DNA from: a virus
Lineage: Duplodnaviria > Heunggongvirae > Uroviricota > Caudoviricetes
Reading direction: 5' to 3' (one strand)
Virus record (IMG/VR): IMGVR_UViG_2531839235_000007
DNA length: 4,287 nt
Under the pieces are notes generated by a model. The model was given only the letters and a program-made list of their open reading frames with translations, did not search any database and had not been told where the DNA came from. Within the stretch, counting starts at the first letter, position 1, and each line of letters starts with the position of its first letter. Below, piece by piece: positions 1-4,287 of the stretch. The position numbers and the translations under genes are program-made.

Positions 1-486
1 CTCTGGATTGCTCAGATTGGCGCGATGACTGAACAGCAAATCCGGCAGGTCTGCCGTCAGTGCATGGACCGCTGCCGGGCGGGTGAAACGTGGCCTCCGG
101 ACCTGGCTGAGTTTGTGGCGTTGATTTCGGAGAGCGGGGCAAATCCATTTGGCCTGACGGTGGATGCCGTGATGGAGGAGTACCGTCGCTGGAGGAATGA
201 ATCCTGGCGGTACGACGGGAGTGATAAATACCCGTGGCCACAGCCGGTGCTGTACCACATTTGCCTCGAGATGCGTGACAGAGGGATTGAGCGGCAGATG
301 ACGGAAGGTGAGTTAAAACGACTTGCAGAACGGCAACTGACGAAATGGGCAAAGCAAGTTGGTAACGGGATGAGTATTCCCCCGATCCGGAGACAACTCG
401 CATCGCCGAAGTGCCCGCAAGGGCCAACGCCAATTGAATTACTGAAACAGGAATACGAGCGCCGGAAGGCGGCTGGTTTTGTTTGA
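1..486 (+). CDS. Replication protein P-like (lambda P family), 5'-truncated by the window edge
   Basis: Frame 1 is open from base 1 to TGA at 484-486 (track ORF 25..486 is the in-frame ATG portion). The translation recalls the lambda P C-terminal region: YPWPQPVLYH, TEGELKRLAERQL and IPPIRRQL versus my memory of lambda P YPWKSNAHYW, TDAELRRKAADEL and IPEPVKQL. This is from memory, not an alignment. Confidence 0.75.
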   Translation, partial: LWIAQIGAMTEQQIRQVCRQCMDRCRAGETWPPDLAEFVALISESGANPFGLTVDAVMEEYRRWRNESWRYDGSDKYPWPQPVLYHICLEMRDRGIERQMTEGELKRLAERQLTKWAKQVGNGMSIPPIRRQLASPKCPQGPTPIELLKQEYERRKAAGFV

Positions 487-519
487 ATCTGAGAAACGAT
501 TTTGTCGGAGGAAATTTTA

Positions 520-1236
520 ATGGAAACCGTATCTGACGCACTGAAAGCACTGAAAAGAGCCTCTTCACATGTGGTGGCAGCTCGCCTTGGAATTAGTCGT
601 GAAGAGGCTGTCAACGAACTGTGGAAACTGAAACGCCGTGGAGAAGCGGATAACAAGGGGGCGATATGGTGGCTGACTCAGGCTGGTGAAAGTGAACCGG
701 TGTCACCGGTACCGAAAGTGACGGCGCAAATGCTGACAGAGGCGATTGAACAACATGGCCCACAAACGGCGGATGAACTGGCATTGATGTTCGGAATTAC
801 CTCCCGCCGGGCGAATTCATCGCTGGCAATGGCAATCAGCAAAGGGTGTCTGATTCGCGTGAATCAGGATGGTAAATTTCGTTACTGCATACCGGGCGTT
901 GATTTACCGGCAGAGCCGAAAGCAGCATCCGTAGCTGAAACGGAGGGTAAAGCCCTTCCTCAGCCAGCTGGTGTTGCGTTACCAGTCCAGGAAACGGCTG
1001 CACAGGAAGAAATTAAAACAGAAGCGGTGGAGGACATTGTGAAGTTGCAGCAATCGTTCACTGAAGCGAAAGCAGATGACCTGATTCTACCATCGCTGCA
1101 TGTGGCTAACCGCGAGCTGCGCCGGGCGAAAAGTAATGTTCAGAAGTGGGAGCGAGTCTGTGCTGCGCTACGGGAACTGAACAAACACAGGGATATTCTC
1201 CGGGATATTACCGCCACCAGAGAGCAGCAGCGGTGA
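520..1236 (+). CDS. Hypothetical prophage protein with two winged-helix-like repeats and an acidic, coiled-coil-like C-terminal half (possibly DUF1627-type; family uncertain)
   Basis: Track ORF 502..1236 begins at a TTG; the in-frame ATG at 520 has GGAGGA 7 nt upstream, so 520 is preferred. Two similar segments (residues ~10-60 and ~75-130 of the track ORF) each look like helix-turn-helix plus wing. Stop TGA at 1234-1236. Confidence 0.75.
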
Positions 1237-1550
1237 GTGGCTGGAAGAAGTGGCGCTGGGCTGAAATCCTGATACTCCGGCAGTGTGCGGGAACGATGAG
1301 AGTCGAAAGCATCGGTTATCTGATTGGCCGTAGTGAGTCAGCCGTCAGGACGAAAGCGCGGGAACTGGGTATCAGCATGATGTTACGGGGTGATTATCAC
1401 CAGTCAGCCAAATGTTCACAGCGTGATATTGAGCTGGCGTGGCAACTGCATCAGCGTGGTGTACCCCGACGGGAAATTGCCGAAAAGTTTGGGATGAAGT
1501 TGGGCGCAGTGAATAACTACGTTTATTTCGACAGGAGGGTTCAGGAGTGA
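1233..1550 (+). CDS. Small DNA-binding protein with two tandem helix-turn-helix-like motifs
   Basis: Same frame as track ORF 1146..1550. GTG at 1233 overlaps the upstream TGA (GTGA), which suggests translational coupling; ATG at 1296 is an alternative start. Segments WAEILILRQ...[21 protein letters not shown] and [29 protein letters not shown] look like two HTH units; the first needs the 1233 start. Stop TGA at 1548-1550. Confidence 0.65.
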
Positions 1551-1849
1551 GGGTGAGGGTTTATATCGCCGGTCCGATGACGGGATATGAAAATTTTAAC
1601 CGCGAGGCATTTCACAAAACGGAAGAGGTGCTGAAACGGGAAGGGCATACCGTTTTAAACCCGGCAGTACTTCCGGACGGGCTGACTCAGCCACACTACA
1701 TGGATATTTGCATGGCAATGCTCCGTTGCGTGGATGCGGTTTACATGCTGAAAGGCTGGCAGCAGTCGGCAGGTGCAGGGGCTGAGCTGGCACTGGAGGA
1801 GAAACCGGGCCATGCGGTGATTTTTCAGGAGGTGGGCAGTGAATATTGA
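1547..1849 (+). CDS. DUF4406-like protein (nucleoside 2-deoxyribosyltransferase-like fold)
   Basis: Track ORF 1547..1849. GTG start overlaps the upstream stop (GTGA); AGGAGG at 1533-1538 precedes it, and an in-frame GTG at 1553 is an alternative. N-terminal VYIAGPMTGYENFNREAF and later AVYMLKGWQQSAGAGAE match my memory of the DUF4406 signature. Stop TGA at 1847-1849. Confidence 0.7.
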   Translation: MRVRVYIAGPMTGYENFNREAFHKTEEVLKREGHTVLNPAVLPDGLTQPHYMDICMAMLRCVDAVYMLKGWQQSAGAGAELALEEKPGHAVIFQEVGSEY

Positions 1850-2156
1850 CCCGGCGATAACGATTGATATGGCCCTGAACGCCGGCCTGGCACTTCTTGG
1901 TTATTTCTACATTATGTTCTGCAGCGGACGATGGCTGTCACTGTTGTTCATGAAAAAATGGAATAAACGCCGTAAGCAGGAGCAACGCCAGAAGGCAATG
2001 GATGCATTTTTCGAAGCCTTCGGAATTGACGGCATGGAACCAGGGGATCCAGCTCGCGCAATCAGCAGAGGGGGTGTAGTAATCCTTGTATATCGGAGTG
2101 AAGAGAAAAATGACGATCACAAAACAACGTGTAGAAGAAATCATATCCCGCATTGA
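1839..2156 (+). CDS. Possible small membrane protein (one predicted transmembrane helix followed by a basic stretch)
   Basis: Track ORF 1839..2156. GTG start with AGGAGG at 1827-1832, 6 nt upstream; ATG at 1869 is an alternative. Hydrophobic segment LALLGYFYIMFCSGRWLSLLF followed by KKWNKRRKQEQRQK. It overlaps the upstream gene by 11 nt and the downstream gene by 47 nt, so its true extent is uncertain. Confidence 0.4.
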   Translation: MNIDPAITIDMALNAGLALLGYFYIMFCSGRWLSLLFMKKWNKRRKQEQRQKAMDAFFEAFGIDGMEPGDPARAISRGGVVILVYRSEEKNDDHKTTCRRNHIPH

Positions 2157-2427
2157 AATGTATGGACATGGTGCAGGGTATATCGCAGACGAGGTTAATG
2201 ATCTGGCTATACTGGCGCTGAATTTATCAAATATCGCGAACCTGAAGCGATACGAGCTTGATATGGGAGGTTGCGACTCGTGCGGTCAGGATTGTGGCGC
2301 TGATATGACTGAAGATCCTGATGGTGATTATGTCCTGTTTGATGACGTGGTTAAGTTGTTTGAATTTGATACAACCACTCAAAAGTTAGAAATCCCGGCA
2401 AAGGAGGCAGCCAGTGGGCAAGATTGA
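2110..2427 (+). CDS. Hypothetical prophage protein with a Cys-rich CDSCGQDC motif and acidic C-terminus
   Basis: Same frame as track ORF 2086..2427, which begins at a TTG. ATG at 2110 with a purine-rich GGAGTGAAGAG stretch upstream is preferred. Stop TGA at 2425-2427. Confidence 0.65.
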   Translation: MTITKQRVEEIISRIEMYGHGAGYIADEVNDLAILALNLSNIANLKRYELDMGGCDSCGQDCGADMTEDPDGDYVLFDDVVKLFEFDTTTQKLEIPAKEAASGQD

Positions 2428-2851
2428 CTATCAGGCACTGCGTGAGGCAGCACAAAACTATCAATCGACGCTGGCGTGGTATCAGGCTACCCCGGACAGC
2501 CCAAATGCTGAACGGGATTGTGATGCGGCTCTTGCTGCGTTTAAGCGTCACATCCGTCATCGGGAAGCGGATATTATCGCTGATTTGCTGGATGGACTGG
2601 AAGAAGCAAAATCACAACTCAACGAGCAGCGTGAGTATTACGAAGGCGTTATCTCTGATGGGAGCAAGCGTATTGCTGAACTGGAAGCGCGGGAAGTTCA
2701 ATTACCGACTCGCTACGACCTTCGATATGGACACCCGATAAATGCAGATGAGCGACATGTCATGATACCTAAAGAAAATGGCAGTTGGCTTTACCTGATT
2801 GACCTAGAACACGCATTACGCGTCGCTGGCATTCGCATCAAAGGAGAGTGA
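2414..2851 (+). CDS. Ea22-like prophage protein (putative)
   Basis: Track ORF 2414..2851. GTG start with AAGGAGG at 2401-2407, 6 nt upstream. The N-terminus IDYQALREAA resembles, from memory, the N-terminal signature of ead/Ea22-like E. coli prophage proteins. Stop TGA at 2849-2851. Confidence 0.7.
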   Translation: MGKIDYQALREAAQNYQSTLAWYQATPDSPNAERDCDAALAAFKRHIRHREADIIADLLDGLEEAKSQLNEQREYYEGVISDGSKRIAELEAREVQLPTRYDLRYGHPINADERHVMIPKENGSWLYLIDLEHALRVAGIRIKGE

Positions 2852-2852
2852 G

Positions 2853-3044
2853 ATGAACGGACAAATATCAATTGTTCGACCAGGAGCATGTGACGATCGC
2901 GAAATACGAATGATTATTCGTCTGGCGATGGGGAAAACAATAACAGCTCTCATTACTCCTGAAAATCTCGCATTAGCATTAACAGGAAAGTCAGACATGC
3001 CAGTAGAGCTAAAGCTGCGAAATGTTGAGATTAAGGTGAAATAG
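2853..3044 (+). CDS. Hypothetical small protein (63 aa)
   Basis: Track ORF 2853..3044. ATG lies 1 nt after the upstream stop (GAGTGAGATG) with AAAGGAGAG upstream. I recognise no family. Confidence 0.6.
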   Translation: MNGQISIVRPGACDDREIRMIIRLAMGKTITALITPENLALALTGKSDMPVELKLRNVEIKVK

Positions 3045-3046
3045 CT

Positions 3047-3604
3047 ATGACCACTATTACCAAAGATCGACTGCTGACAATCCAGCATTGGCGCGAAACA
3101 TACGGACCGGGTAGCAACGTTGTGCTTCCAGCAGAAGAAGCGGAAGAGCTGGCACGGATTGCGCTGGCATCACTGGCAGCAGTATCGGATGAACGAGCAG
3201 CCTATGAATTATTTATGGAGAAGCGTTTCGGAGAATCTGTAGATCGCCGCAGAGCAAAAAATGGCGATAGAGAATACATGGCATGGGATATGGCGCTTGG
3301 CTGGATTATCTGGTGTCACCGCGCCGCCATGCTTCAGGCTGGAAACTTTCGGGAAAATAAGGGTTCGTCAACCAATAATTTTCGGATAATCTCGGAAACG
3401 TCAACCAACTCTCCGGCAATCCCTGATGAGGTGTTGTCCGCAATCCTGAAGGTCGCCAGGCTTCGTGCAGATTTCGATGCTTCTGAAGTGGACAGGCGAG
3501 GTATCGGTAGTTGTCTGGATGAGGCCGAGCAAGAACTTATCGTTACCATTAACGAATACGCCAGTCAGATCGCAGTAGAAGCGACACAGGGGGAGAACCA
3601 ATGA
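3047..3604 (+). CDS. Hypothetical prophage protein (185 aa)
   Basis: Track ORF 3047..3604. ATG with AAGGTGA upstream, 2 nt after the preceding stop. Long uninterrupted frame in a same-strand gene chain. I recognise no family. Confidence 0.75.
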   Translation: MTTITKDRLLTIQHWRETYGPGSNVVLPAEEAEELARIALASLAAVSDERAAYELFMEKRFGESVDRRRAKNGDREYMAWDMALGWIIWCHRAAMLQAGNFRENKGSSTNNFRIISETSTNSPAIPDEVLSAILKVARLRADFDASEVDRRGIGSCLDEAEQELIVTINEYASQIAVEATQGENQ

Positions 3605-3678
3605 GCCGGCCAGATGCATTTGCAGGCGTTGCTATAGCTATTGCTTTTCTAGTATATGTTATTTGTCGGTGGGGGTAA
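3601..3678 (+). CDS. Candidate 25-aa hydrophobic micro-protein (MSRPDAFAGVAIAIAFLVYVICRWG)
   Basis: Hand-translated; too short for the ORF track. ATG at 3601 overlaps the upstream TGA (ATGA), with GGGGAGA about 8 nt upstream. The peptide is one predicted transmembrane helix. Stop TAA at 3676-3678. Confidence 0.35.
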   Translation: MSRPDAFAGVAIAIAFLVYVICRWG

Positions 3679-3713
3679 AAACGTTCGCCGGGATTCACAC
3701 CAAAGGAGGGAAT

Positions 3714-3818
3714 ATGTCGGATGATATTTCACTGGCAATGGAAGGTGCGCTGGCTGTTATTGCTGTTGTGGGCGTTTACTGCCTGGTTGTGTTTTTGATG
3801 GATCGACTAGGGAACTGA
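3714..3818 (+). CDS. Candidate 34-aa hydrophobic micro-protein (MSDDISLAMEGALAVIAVVGVYCLVVFLMDRLGN)
   Basis: Hand-translated. ATG at 3714 with AAAGGAGGG at 3703-3710, 3 nt upstream. Acidic N-terminus, then one predicted transmembrane helix. Stop TGA at 3816-3818. Confidence 0.45.
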   Translation: MSDDISLAMEGALAVIAVVGVYCLVVFLMDRLGN

Positions 3819-3826
3819 ATTCATTA

Positions 3827-3848
3827 CGATATGGGAATTCCCATATCG
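3827..3848. repeat. 22-bp perfect palindrome CGATATGGGAATTCCCATATCG
   Basis: The sequence equals its own reverse complement. It sits between the 34-aa micro-ORF stop and the predicted hok promoter -35. No U-tract follows on either strand. Confidence 0.6.
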
Positions 3849-3860
3849 GGTAAAAACGGT

Positions 3861-3888
3861 TTGCGGTAAAGCGAGAGTTAAGTAGAAT
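3861..3888 (+). promoter_or_regulatory. Candidate sigma70 promoter for the hok/mok mRNA
   Basis: -35 TTGCGG at 3861-3866 and -10 TAGAAT at 3883-3888, 16-nt spacer. This places the transcript start near 3892-3897, where the 5' sequence complementary to the window's 3' end begins. Confidence 0.4.
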
Positions 3889-3906
3889 TGCTGCGGGTGC
3901 TTGAGG

Positions 3907-3942
3907 CTGTCTGCCTCGGGCATGCCACCGTAAGGCAGACAG
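3907..3942 (+). other. Stem-loop in the predicted hok mRNA leader (10-bp perfect stem, 16-nt loop with an internal GGCATGCC palindrome)
   Basis: CTGTCTGCCT at 3907-3916 is the exact reverse complement of AGGCAGACAG at 3933-3942. The loop contains the self-complementary GGCATGCC at 3919-3926. Confidence 0.5.
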
Positions 3943-3944
3943 AG

Positions 3945-4015
3945 AAAAGCCCCAGTTAACATTACGCGTCCTGCAAGACGCCTAACATTAATCTGAGGCC
4001 AATTTCATGCTAGAC
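3945..4015 (-). ncRNA. sok: Candidate Sok-like antisense RNA (coordinates approximate)
   Basis: In hok/sok loci the antitoxin RNA is antisense to the mok translation-initiation region. On the - strand there is a weak candidate promoter: -35 TTGCCT (+ coordinates 4050-4045), 17-nt spacer, -10 TAACCT (4027-4022). A T-rich run on the - strand near 3949-3941 could mark the 3' end. I could not define a clean terminator hairpin. Confidence 0.3.
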
Positions 4016-4219
4016 ACATGTAGGTTAGCCTCTTACGCGCCGAAAGGCAAGGAGAAGCAGGTTATGAAGCAGCAAAAGGCGATGTTAATCGCCCTGATCG
4101 TCATCTGTTTAACCGTCATAGTGACGGCACTGGTAACGAGGAAAGACCTCTGCGAGGTACGAATCCGAACCGGCCAGACGGAGGTCGCTGTCTTCACAGC
4201 TTACGAACCTGAGGAGTAA
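4007..4219 (+). CDS. mok: Mok-like leader ORF, in frame with and containing hok (70 aa)
   Basis: Track ORF 4007..4219. ATG at 4007 with CTGAGG about 8 nt upstream. The N-terminal extension MLDTCRLASYAPKGKEKQV resembles the chromosomal MokC extension as I remember it. Confidence 0.55.
   Translation: MLDTCRLASYAPKGKEKQVMKQQKAMLIALIVICLTVIVTALVTRKDLCEVRIRTGQTEVAVFTAYEPEE
4064..4219 (+). CDS. hok: Hok/Gef family type I toxin (HokD/RelF-like, 51 aa)
   Basis: ATG at 4064 with AAGGAGAAG upstream. MKQQKAMLIALIVICLTVIVTALVTRKDLCEVRIRTGQTEVAVFTAYEPEE has the Hok signature: N-terminal transmembrane helix, the conserved TRK-LCE-R motif and a periplasmic tail. It is close to Gef/HokC and RelF/HokD as I remember them. 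Stop TAA at 4217-4219. Confidence 0.9.
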   Translation: MKQQKAMLIALIVICLTVIVTALVTRKDLCEVRIRTGQTEVAVFTAYEPEE

Positions 4220-4275
4220 GAGACCTGGCGGGGGAGAAATCCCTCGCCACCTCTGATGTGTCAGGCATCCTCAAC

Positions 4276-4284
4276 GCACCCGCA
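4276..4284 (+). other. Candidate fbi (fold-back inhibition) element at the hok mRNA 3' end, pairing with the 5' end at 3892-3900
   Basis: GCACCCGCA at 4276-4284 is the exact reverse complement of TGCGGGTGC at 3892-3900. Long-range 5'-3' pairing of this kind is the known tac/fbi mechanism of hok mRNAs. The window ends at 4287, so the element may be incomplete. Confidence 0.45.
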
Positions 4285-4287
4285 CTT

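Follow-up and report, generated by a model that had tools for sequence, protein, structure and literature searches.

The DNA analyzed here is a 4,287-nt stretch of a virus of the Caudoviricetes (IMG/VR record IMGVR_UViG_2531839235_000007; the whole stretch is called the window), which we find to be a lambdoid prophage early-right ('nin-like') segment of Escherichia coli. Our subject is a pair of tandem micro-open reading frames (ORFs) within it, ORF1 (25 aa) and ORF2 (34 aa), which lie between a 185-aa gene and a classical type I toxin locus, hok/sok/mok (Table 1). An earlier note, made from the letters of this DNA alone, had described an ATGA overlap coupling ORF1 to the gene before it, a strong Shine-Dalgarno (SD) sequence, AAAGGAGGG, 3 nt before the ORF2 ATG, and a hok locus next to both; these features, and the positions, sequences and lengths that it gave for the two ORFs, are all recovered on re-reading the sequence. 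We find that each ORF encodes a peptide under purifying selection and belongs to a family of its own in prophages of E. coli and Shigella, and that the two peptides are probably non-toxic proteins of the inner membrane.

Table 1. Positions of ORF1, ORF2 and the features around them, numbered from the first letter of the window.
Feature	Position	Strand	Remarks
Upstream gene, 185 aa	3047-3604	+	Function unassigned; PHROG 14306, 660 and 60 matches; TGA 3602-3604 overlaps ORF1 start
SD-like GGGGGAG of ORF1	3589-3595	+	Inside end of upstream gene
ORF1, 25 aa	3601-3678	+	ATG 3601, TAA 3676-3678; peptide MSRPDAFAGVAIAIAFLVYVICRWG
Left direct repeat GGGTAAAAACGTTCGC	3673-3688	+	Covers last ORF1 codon and stop
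SD of ORF2, AAAGGAGGG	3702-3710	+	3 nt before ATG; predicted unpaired
ORF2, 34 aa, single transmembrane helix (predicted)	3714-3818	+	ATG 3714, TGA 3816-3818; peptide MSDDISLAMEGALAVIAVVGVYCLVVFLMDRLGN
Perfect 22-nt palindrome CGATATGGGAATTCCCATATCG	3827-3848	both	EcoRI site at centre; end of ORF2 cassette
Right direct repeat GGGTAAAAACGGTTTGC	3848-3864	+	Overlaps inferred -35 of hok promoter
Inferred hok promoter	3861-3888	+	TTGCGG, 16 nt, TAGAAT; read from sequence; GTTAAGTAGAAT box kept beside every hok copy
hok/sok/mok locus	3895-4219	+	hok mRNA 5' region and sok; mok 4007-4219; hok 4064-4219
Weak sigma-70-like promoter matches	3738-3711, 3679-3651, 3404-3375	-	First two would give RNAs antisense to ORF2 start and ORF1 3' end

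Both peptides are strongly hydrophobic. The six frames hold 70 ORFs of 20 aa or more, and when these are ranked by their most hydrophobic 17-residue segment, Mok/Hok, ORF2 and ORF1 take the top three places, with best Kyte-Doolittle means of 3.22 (Hok), 2.95 (ORF2) and 2.66 (ORF1), and AlphaFold2 models ORF2 as one helix spanning residues 2-33 at a predicted local distance difference test (pLDDT) score of 90, in keeping with the single transmembrane (TM) helix that the earlier note had proposed for each. Its view that neither resembles a known type I toxin also holds, since Pfam and NCBIfam return no toxin family, and no other match, for either peptide at E ≤ 1. Searches of PHROG, PADLOC and PDB sequences likewise give no match for either one, and neither has a homologue in the Rac and Qin prophages of E. 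coli K-12 (DLP12 and e14 lay outside this search). A lipoprotein or signal-peptide reading of ORF1 was rejected on inspection: an Ile precedes the Cys, and the N-terminus is acidic.

ORF1 belongs to a previously unrecorded family of small proteins, 25-27 aa single-TM peptides that share the motif M-x-W-P-E/D-A-F…Y-x-I-C-R-W-G, and the window carries a divergent allele with W3R and a two-residue deletion (a 6-nt in-frame indel relative to most alleles). A tblastn search of 50,697 phage records with the 27-aa form matches 99 records, 97 of them over nearly the full length; examples of the family in phages are those of VT2-Sakai (MTWPEAFANVGTVMAVVLVVYSICRWR), Stx2a_WGPS2 (MTWPDAFAIVGVAMSIALIVFAICRWG) and vB_EcoM-606R7. 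A motif scan of IMG/VR enlarged the set, to a total of 57 different DNA sequences of 27 codons that specify 37 different peptides. Two gut-metagenome contigs, L085 and L097, carry a divergent homologue (MTLPDAFAIVGITIAIAIIVYSICRWL) 5' of a divergent ORF2, found free of motif bias, and more distant members occur in the P1-like phage SJ46 (MSWPEAFAIVGVAMAIAAIFIFWG) and in a groundwater contig, L126 (MNWPEAFALVGIAFALAFTLWALSR).

After the distant homologue of the groundwater contig (L126, 926-1040) comes a hydrophobic ORF of 13 codons (MRLLCALVMMVGL), which again overlaps the preceding stop as ATGA and may be there by chance. Salmonella phage SJ46 (L132, 1501-1811) and other P1-like phage-plasmids (L237, L315, L332 and L361) carry an ORF1-family peptide of the form MSWPEAFA…, and within about 3 nt of the stop of the SJ46-type ORF1 a conserved acidic protein of 77 aa (MGKLTFVVEFEDGKEPP…) has its ATG, such that ORF1 is not the last cistron there; no hok is found in the ~260 nt inspected downstream.

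None of the genome or phage records inspected annotates ORF1, and full-text literature searches with peptide strings and WP accessions find no mention of the family. At 78-84 nt, the gene presumably falls below the minimum length of common gene callers. The expectation that gene callers would miss ORFs this short is borne out for ORF1 and fails for ORF2, which the Prokaryotic Genome Annotation Pipeline (PGAP) records as a hypothetical protein (WP_001278460, WP_001278454 and WP_001278450; ECs_5710 in E. coli O157:H7 Sakai). A protein-based scan of species-representative genomes gives no match, and a DNA-pattern scan of such genomes gives, among the matches listed, mostly chance out-of-frame ones, with the true ones in E. 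coli and Shigella. Two contigs shorter than 450 nt, attributed to Xanthomonas pisi (L174, 431 nt) and Acinetobacter idrijaensis (L237, 369 nt), carry an E. coli phage-type ORF1, one of the two peptides being identical to that of VT2-Sakai; both seem to stem from contaminated assemblies and not to mark true hosts.

Synonymous-biased substitution, which the earlier note had put forward as a check, is found for both ORFs in their relatives. Among six copies of ORF1, four of them retrieved without the ORF1 motif (L097 via ORF2; L127-L129 by tblastn), the pairwise ratio of nonsynonymous to synonymous substitution (dN/dS) is 0.12-0.53, compared with mostly ~0.5-2.0 in the shifted frames, and synonymous sites are near saturation (proportion of synonymous differences, pS, up to 0.73). 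Over the helix core (codons 8-23, which are free of the search pattern) the ratio is 0.43, versus 0.65 and 1.40 in the shifted frames. ORF1 is intact in 134 of 141 loci anchored on ORF2, the rest consisting of five copies with W26stop, one with a frameshift and one cut by an insertion sequence.

The ATGA start that overlaps the stop of the upstream gene is present in 240 of 240 ORF1 copies. Codon 2 is Ser, Thr, Asn or Ile and its first base is always A, so that the TGA of the upstream gene is kept; other members have AGGAGGT or GGAGGA at the position of the SD-like sequence, within different upstream genes. In the overlap of its ATG with the upstream TGA, and in an SD that lies inside the upstream gene, ORF1 resembles the coupled ATGA micro-cistrons of phage operons; it differs from them in that one 27-aa cistron is joined to at least four unrelated upstream C-terminal modules, which indicates that the junction itself travels with ORF1.

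The ORF2 family is very narrow. A word-indexed search of 5.8 billion proteins yields 30 clusters at identities of 73-100%, all named ones from E. coli, and scanning 1.84 billion representatives exhaustively with a profile yields 14 matches; where a query longer than the peptides was called for, a form extended to 51 aa and the naturally fused protein P0008 were used. All 140 copies in the fetched loci are open (138 of 34 aa and two of 32 aa), with 17 distinct DNAs encoding 11 distinct peptides. The dN/dS is 0.19 in frame versus 0.86 and 1.45 in the shifted frames, and 0.15 when L097, a divergent copy, is the partner. Of the 35 variable sites, 19 fall at third codon positions, and the stop is preserved by a TGA-to-TAA change. 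The ORF2 SD is nearly invariant in 29 distinct aligned alleles, where only the third A varies, to G.

ORF2 is also translated. The earlier note had suggested that the peptide could be new and that ribosome occupancy be looked for at its start; it was in fact published in 2017 by Hücker et al. as XECs145, a translated novel gene of Sakai whose peptide is identical to that of the window (PMC5597208). In lysogeny broth (LB), XECs145 has an RNA signal of 79 and a ribosome signal of 346 reads per kilobase per million (RPKM), a ribosome-to-RNA read ratio (RCV) of 4.35 and a coverage of 0.99; in brain heart infusion (BHI) the corresponding values are 121, 150, 1.14 and 0.84, and in BHI under combined stress 73, 1.1, 0.01 and 0.37 (PMC5597208). 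The authors predict an inner-membrane protein with one TM helix; XECs145 is found only in the supplementary tables, and the main text contains neither XECs145 nor prophages, nor functional work (PMC5597208). The gene (ECs_5710) resides in prophage Sp6, where the locus is 98.5-99.7% identical to the window, and the hok linkage, the cassette structure, the partner ORF1 and the divergent branch (ORF2b, below) do not appear to be described in that study (PMC5597208). Annotation and translation of ORF2 are already known; what appears new is how its family is structured, that it is linked to hok and that it forms a cassette.

ORF2 occupies a unit of ~175 nt between ORF1 and the hok promoter, bracketed by 17-nt direct repeats whose two copies agree at 16 of 17 positions (an equal score arises in 33 of 2000 shuffles) and which enclose ORF2 and the 22-nt palindrome. 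ORF2-less phages have a single copy of the repeat, and in them the ORF1 stop runs through GGGTAAAAACGGTTTGCGG directly into the hok promoter, an element whose function we take by analogy with hok of plasmid R1. The hok promoter follows ORF2 directly in ~124 of the 130 copies with enough flank. In E. coli JNEC-KY177 (L002, 3249-3420), ORF2 occurs without hok and is followed by a remnant of the hok promoter and then by an opposite-strand pair of IbrB-like and 3'-phosphoadenosine 5'-phosphosulfate (PAPS)-reductase genes, which may have replaced hok.

A divergent branch of 29-30 aa, ORF2b (MLVLKCALAIAAVMAIYCLVIVLMDHLSD), has 47% protein identity to ORF2 and a GTG start after GGGAGG, and also lies directly at the hok promoter, behind three kinds of upstream neighbour: 146 nt after ORF1 homologues (in L261, L265, L277, L366 and L371, which are mutually different); in phage mEp460_ev081, which has no ORF1 and where ORF2b is unannotated; and after an ORF6N gene in an E. 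coli genome. The DNA of ORF2 and ORF2b is 65% identical, while the neighbouring hok loci are 92-93% identical. Inspection by eye reveals a promoter-like TTGAAx-N17-CATATT ~55 nt 5' of ORF2b in L265 (3340-3430) and in mEp460 (L372, 2420-2495), and conservation of this box in two otherwise different contexts suggests that the ORF2b branch has its own promoter.

The palindrome that closes the ORF2 cassette folds into a 9-bp RNA hairpin (z = -2.6 on the plus strand and -3.9 on the minus strand). We rejected it as a terminator or conserved RNA element, as it lacks a T-run, is not predicted to be a terminator and, in L065 and L085, has decayed with no compensating substitutions; it could mark where an mRNA ends or is processed, or it could bind a protein. 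Sequestration of the ORF2 SD, or an arrest-peptide-style leader, was rejected as well, given that the predicted fold leaves the site unpaired and that the z-score of the region is only -0.8. A peptide of 25-27 aa is probably still inside the ribosomal exit tunnel when its translation terminates.

Downstream of ORF1 we find three arrangements: the hok promoter box 23 nt on (~39 loci); hok preceded by the ORF2 cassette; and other DNA without hok, often beginning with an intrinsic-terminator-like hairpin (~60 loci). No terminator separates the early-operon genes of the window from its hok promoter (3678-3895), and terminators often follow ORF1 where hok is missing (L127, 2578-2640; L129, 2081-2140). 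Because the stretch before hok is free of terminators, early-operon transcription after induction may read into hok and collide with transcription of sok. In the Sakai prophage Sp5, hokW-sokW lies directly downstream of an ORF1 homologue and aids phage release after mitomycin C, by a trigger that is left unexplained (PMC8621323); it is possible that such read-through or collision accounts for the disappearance of sokW RNA and the increase in HokW that are reported to depend on induction in that prophage.

The setting is that of a mosaic early region. The window begins with the C-terminus of replication protein P, DUF1627, a small DNA-binding-like ORF, DUF4406 and DUF4752, and continues through a PHROG 3126 gene, Ead/Ea22, a PHROG 1222 gene and the 185-aa gene to ORF1, ORF2 and hok/sok; in whole prophages, DUF968, RusA and Q come after the hok/sok region. 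The hok coding sequence matches Pfam HOK_GEF (PF01848) at 1e-23 and has the PGAP name HokD, and the Rfam sok model matches 3895-4069 (E = 2e-27). Relative to prophage Sp6 of Sakai (O157:H7), identity is 99.7% over 288-3422 and 98.5% over 3615-4287, and the sole diverging segment, 3423-3614, is a clean mosaic swap that exchanges a DUF551-type C-terminal module of the upstream gene, together with the N-terminal third of ORF1, for another module. In the Sakai genome (NC_002695.2) the ATG of ORF1 is at 1550843 and that of ORF2 at 1550962. The upstream gene family is hyper-mosaic with interchangeable C-terminal modules, at least four unrelated ones being seen in the genes that precede ORF1: DUF551 ('…HWMPLPEPPQEVxQ'), '…DYLKRNGLISVEDVLR', '…YASQIAVEATQGENQ' and '…AENDLKNIEQKVNQ'. 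Shuffled modules that recur in these genes (in the window, L032, L094, L052, L305, L313 and others) are 'ITKERLLTI..WRETYGPGSNVVLPAEEAEELARIALASL', 'NFRENK.SSTNNFR', DUF551 and 'KLPDKAMDYLKRNGLISVEDVLR', and the mosaic proteins range in size from 60 to more than 470 aa.

ORF1 and ORF2 are genuine genes, unrelated to each other, of lambdoid prophages (of the Shiga toxin (Stx) type) in E. coli and Shigella, and on balance we consider it probable that they encode non-toxic, single-pass inner-membrane modulators. ORF1 would be the last, coupled cistron of the early operon, transcribed only after induction and most likely translated by termination-reinitiation, because the ATG/TGA overlap is invariant and the SD lies inside the preceding gene. 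ORF2 would be a hok-linked accessory gene with a strong unpaired SD of its own, made constitutively, uninduced lysogens included. Both peptides would insert post-translationally as one helix, with the acidic N-terminus out and the Arg-containing C-terminus in, as predicted from the positive-inside rule. The end motifs are conserved, WPEAF…ICRWG in ORF1 and AxxAVxx(I/V)YCL…(D/E)(R/H)L in ORF2, and we argue that they point to specific binding of a partner membrane protein rather than to generic membrane damage.

Enterobacteria are known to make proteins of less than 50 aa that cross the inner membrane once and modulate larger proteins there, MgtS, MgrB, AcrZ, KdpF and CydX among them. ORF1 and ORF2 share with this class a length of 25-34 aa, one hydrophobic helix with short charged ends, late or missed annotation and conservation at the peptide level, ORF2 also having been detected by ribosome profiling; they differ in having no sequence relationship to the named members and in being encoded by prophages rather than by the core genome. 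The process that they serve may be the Hok-assisted, induction-timed membrane or lysis programme of these phages, and a shared membrane or lysis role is the most attractive specific hypothesis because the Sp5 hokW-sokW pair 3' of an ORF1 homologue aids release (PMC8621323). A narrower version, to which we assign little probability, adds a third component, at the level of protein, to the hok/sok modules of prophages: the peptide of the ORF2 family, perhaps along with ORF1, would be a membrane partner that binds Hok or its target and so times permeabilization after induction.

Several observations weigh against the interpretation of ORF1 and ORF2 as genes for membrane modulators. Part of the ORF1 set was retrieved by a motif pattern, so that conservation of the end motifs is biased, and it is for this reason that the core-codon dN/dS left those codons out; many loci are near-identical copies, and the counts are accordingly not independent. 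The commonest ORF1 allele (66 loci) has an Asp in mid-helix, and other copies have an L-to-P substitution, W26stop or a frameshift, from which it follows that some ORF1 copies may be decaying in cryptic prophages; the otherwise invariant Trp3 is missing from the ORF1 of the window. The ribosome profiling study of Sakai used a cut-off of 30 aa, below which ORF1 falls, and it called ORF2 with an extended 5' end and in a sequence that is multi-copy in Sakai (PMC5597208). No sigma-70 consensus promoter is found for the window-type ORF2. Lastly, ORF1 lacks hok in the ~60 loci noted above and most hok loci lack ORF2, such that the data do not require a Hok-specific role.

Other readings of the two ORFs share much of this evidence. 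The one that survives best makes ORF2, and possibly ORF1, a 'moron' expressed in lysogens, which protects against other phages or alters a function of the host membrane and is only linked to hok. Translation of ORF2 in uninduced lysogens, its position as a discrete cassette between direct repeats and the promoter-like box upstream of ORF2b are what this reading would lead one to expect, and small single-TM regulators of host membrane proteins form a well-known class; superinfection exclusion and the regulation of membrane proteins, both named by the earlier note, may still apply. We nonetheless judge it unlikely, as there is no PADLOC match and neither a sigma-70 consensus promoter nor a T-run terminator is found in the window-type cassette, and as near-obligate adjacency to hok across branches that are 47% identical, behind three kinds of upstream neighbour, exceeds what is expected of a generic accessory gene.

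The earlier note had also raised the option of small toxins, in which one or both peptides damage the membrane in a type I-like or holin-like manner, being normally repressed and lethal or permeabilizing when expressed. Like Hok/Gef, Ldr, TisB, Ibs and ShoB, ORF1 and ORF2 are small and hydrophobic, with a predicted place in the inner membrane, and they adjoin a classical type I locus; the three weak minus-strand promoter-like sites exceed the 0.8 ± 0.8 expected from shuffles, and two of them could yield antisense RNAs (Table 1). That HokW of Sp5 aids lysis after induction makes lysis-helper peptides plausible here (PMC8621323). Against this stand the lack of a Hok/Gef or other toxin match in Pfam and NCBIfam and, over 3560-3860, of any Rfam match, antisense RNA families included; neither a mok-like leader nor a fold-back mRNA element was found. 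Type I toxins are silenced, whereas ORF2, with its SD unpaired, is among the better-translated small ORFs of exponentially growing Sakai at the RCV given above, the reverse of what silencing would produce; ORF1, for its part, lacks a 5' untranslated region of its own and is just coupled to the gene before it. The high ribosome load in growing cells disfavors a toxin reading of ORF2, one that may still apply to ORF1, and we regard repressed toxins as an improbable explanation for the pair.

Still less probable, in our estimation, is a regulatory role as upstream ORFs or leader peptides, in which the act of translation matters, through transcription into hok or mRNA structure, and the peptides themselves have no role. 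The geometry is in its favor, in that phages without ORF2 have the end of ORF1 23 nt away from the hok -10 box, and the end of ORF2b is ~25 nt away from the promoter of hok; close alleles hardly differ in nucleotide sequence over the 3' half of ORF1 and the spacer that separates it from ORF2, and the production of HokW after induction has an unexplained trigger (PMC8621323). Yet purifying selection on amino acids persists despite saturated synonymous sites, the divergent versions of L085/L097 and L265 preserve the peptides and not the spacer, and ORF1 occurs in ~60 loci with no hok downstream.

We dismiss as scarcely credible the notion of chance open frames in conserved non-coding DNA, or of a single ORF1-ORF2 protein made by a -1 frameshift at GGGGG, which would be in line with close alleles equally conserved in spacer and ORFs and with the database proteins P0008 and P0009, ORF1-ORF2 fusions such as one extra G in the run would give, since dN/dS is clearly lowest in the proposed frames and fusions are seldom met, their clusters having only 5 and 2 members. 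Programmed frameshifting at GGGGG-TAA was itself rejected: ORF2 is in the -1 frame relative to ORF1 in the window and in the same frame, with intervening stops, in L085, and the G-run is absent from L085/L097 and VT2-Sakai.

To what the earlier note held, these results add an ORF1 family that extends across Stx phages, an invariant ATGA overlap and the identity of ORF2 as a separate, hok-linked cassette. ORF1 and ORF2 fall within the small single-pass membrane proteins of prophages; we see in them solid candidates that can be tested, and no new class. Annotation pipelines that set a minimum of 30 codons systematically overlook ORF1, and deleting or cloning 'hok/sok' with its flanks may unknowingly include or disrupt one or both ORFs. 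Stx-converting and related lambdoid prophages are medically important, and much of their early region is functionally unassigned; within it, ORF1 gains a family identity as a conserved 25-27 aa membrane peptide of VT2-Sakai-type Stx phages and many E. coli prophages, and ORF1 and ORF2 together become cheap, well-defined small-protein targets for work on lysis timing, modulation of Hok and superinfection exclusion. Should a third component of hok/sok be confirmed among them, a two-part, RNA-controlled toxin would become a timed lysis-helper device, which could explain how the production and action of HokW are coupled to induction of Stx prophages.

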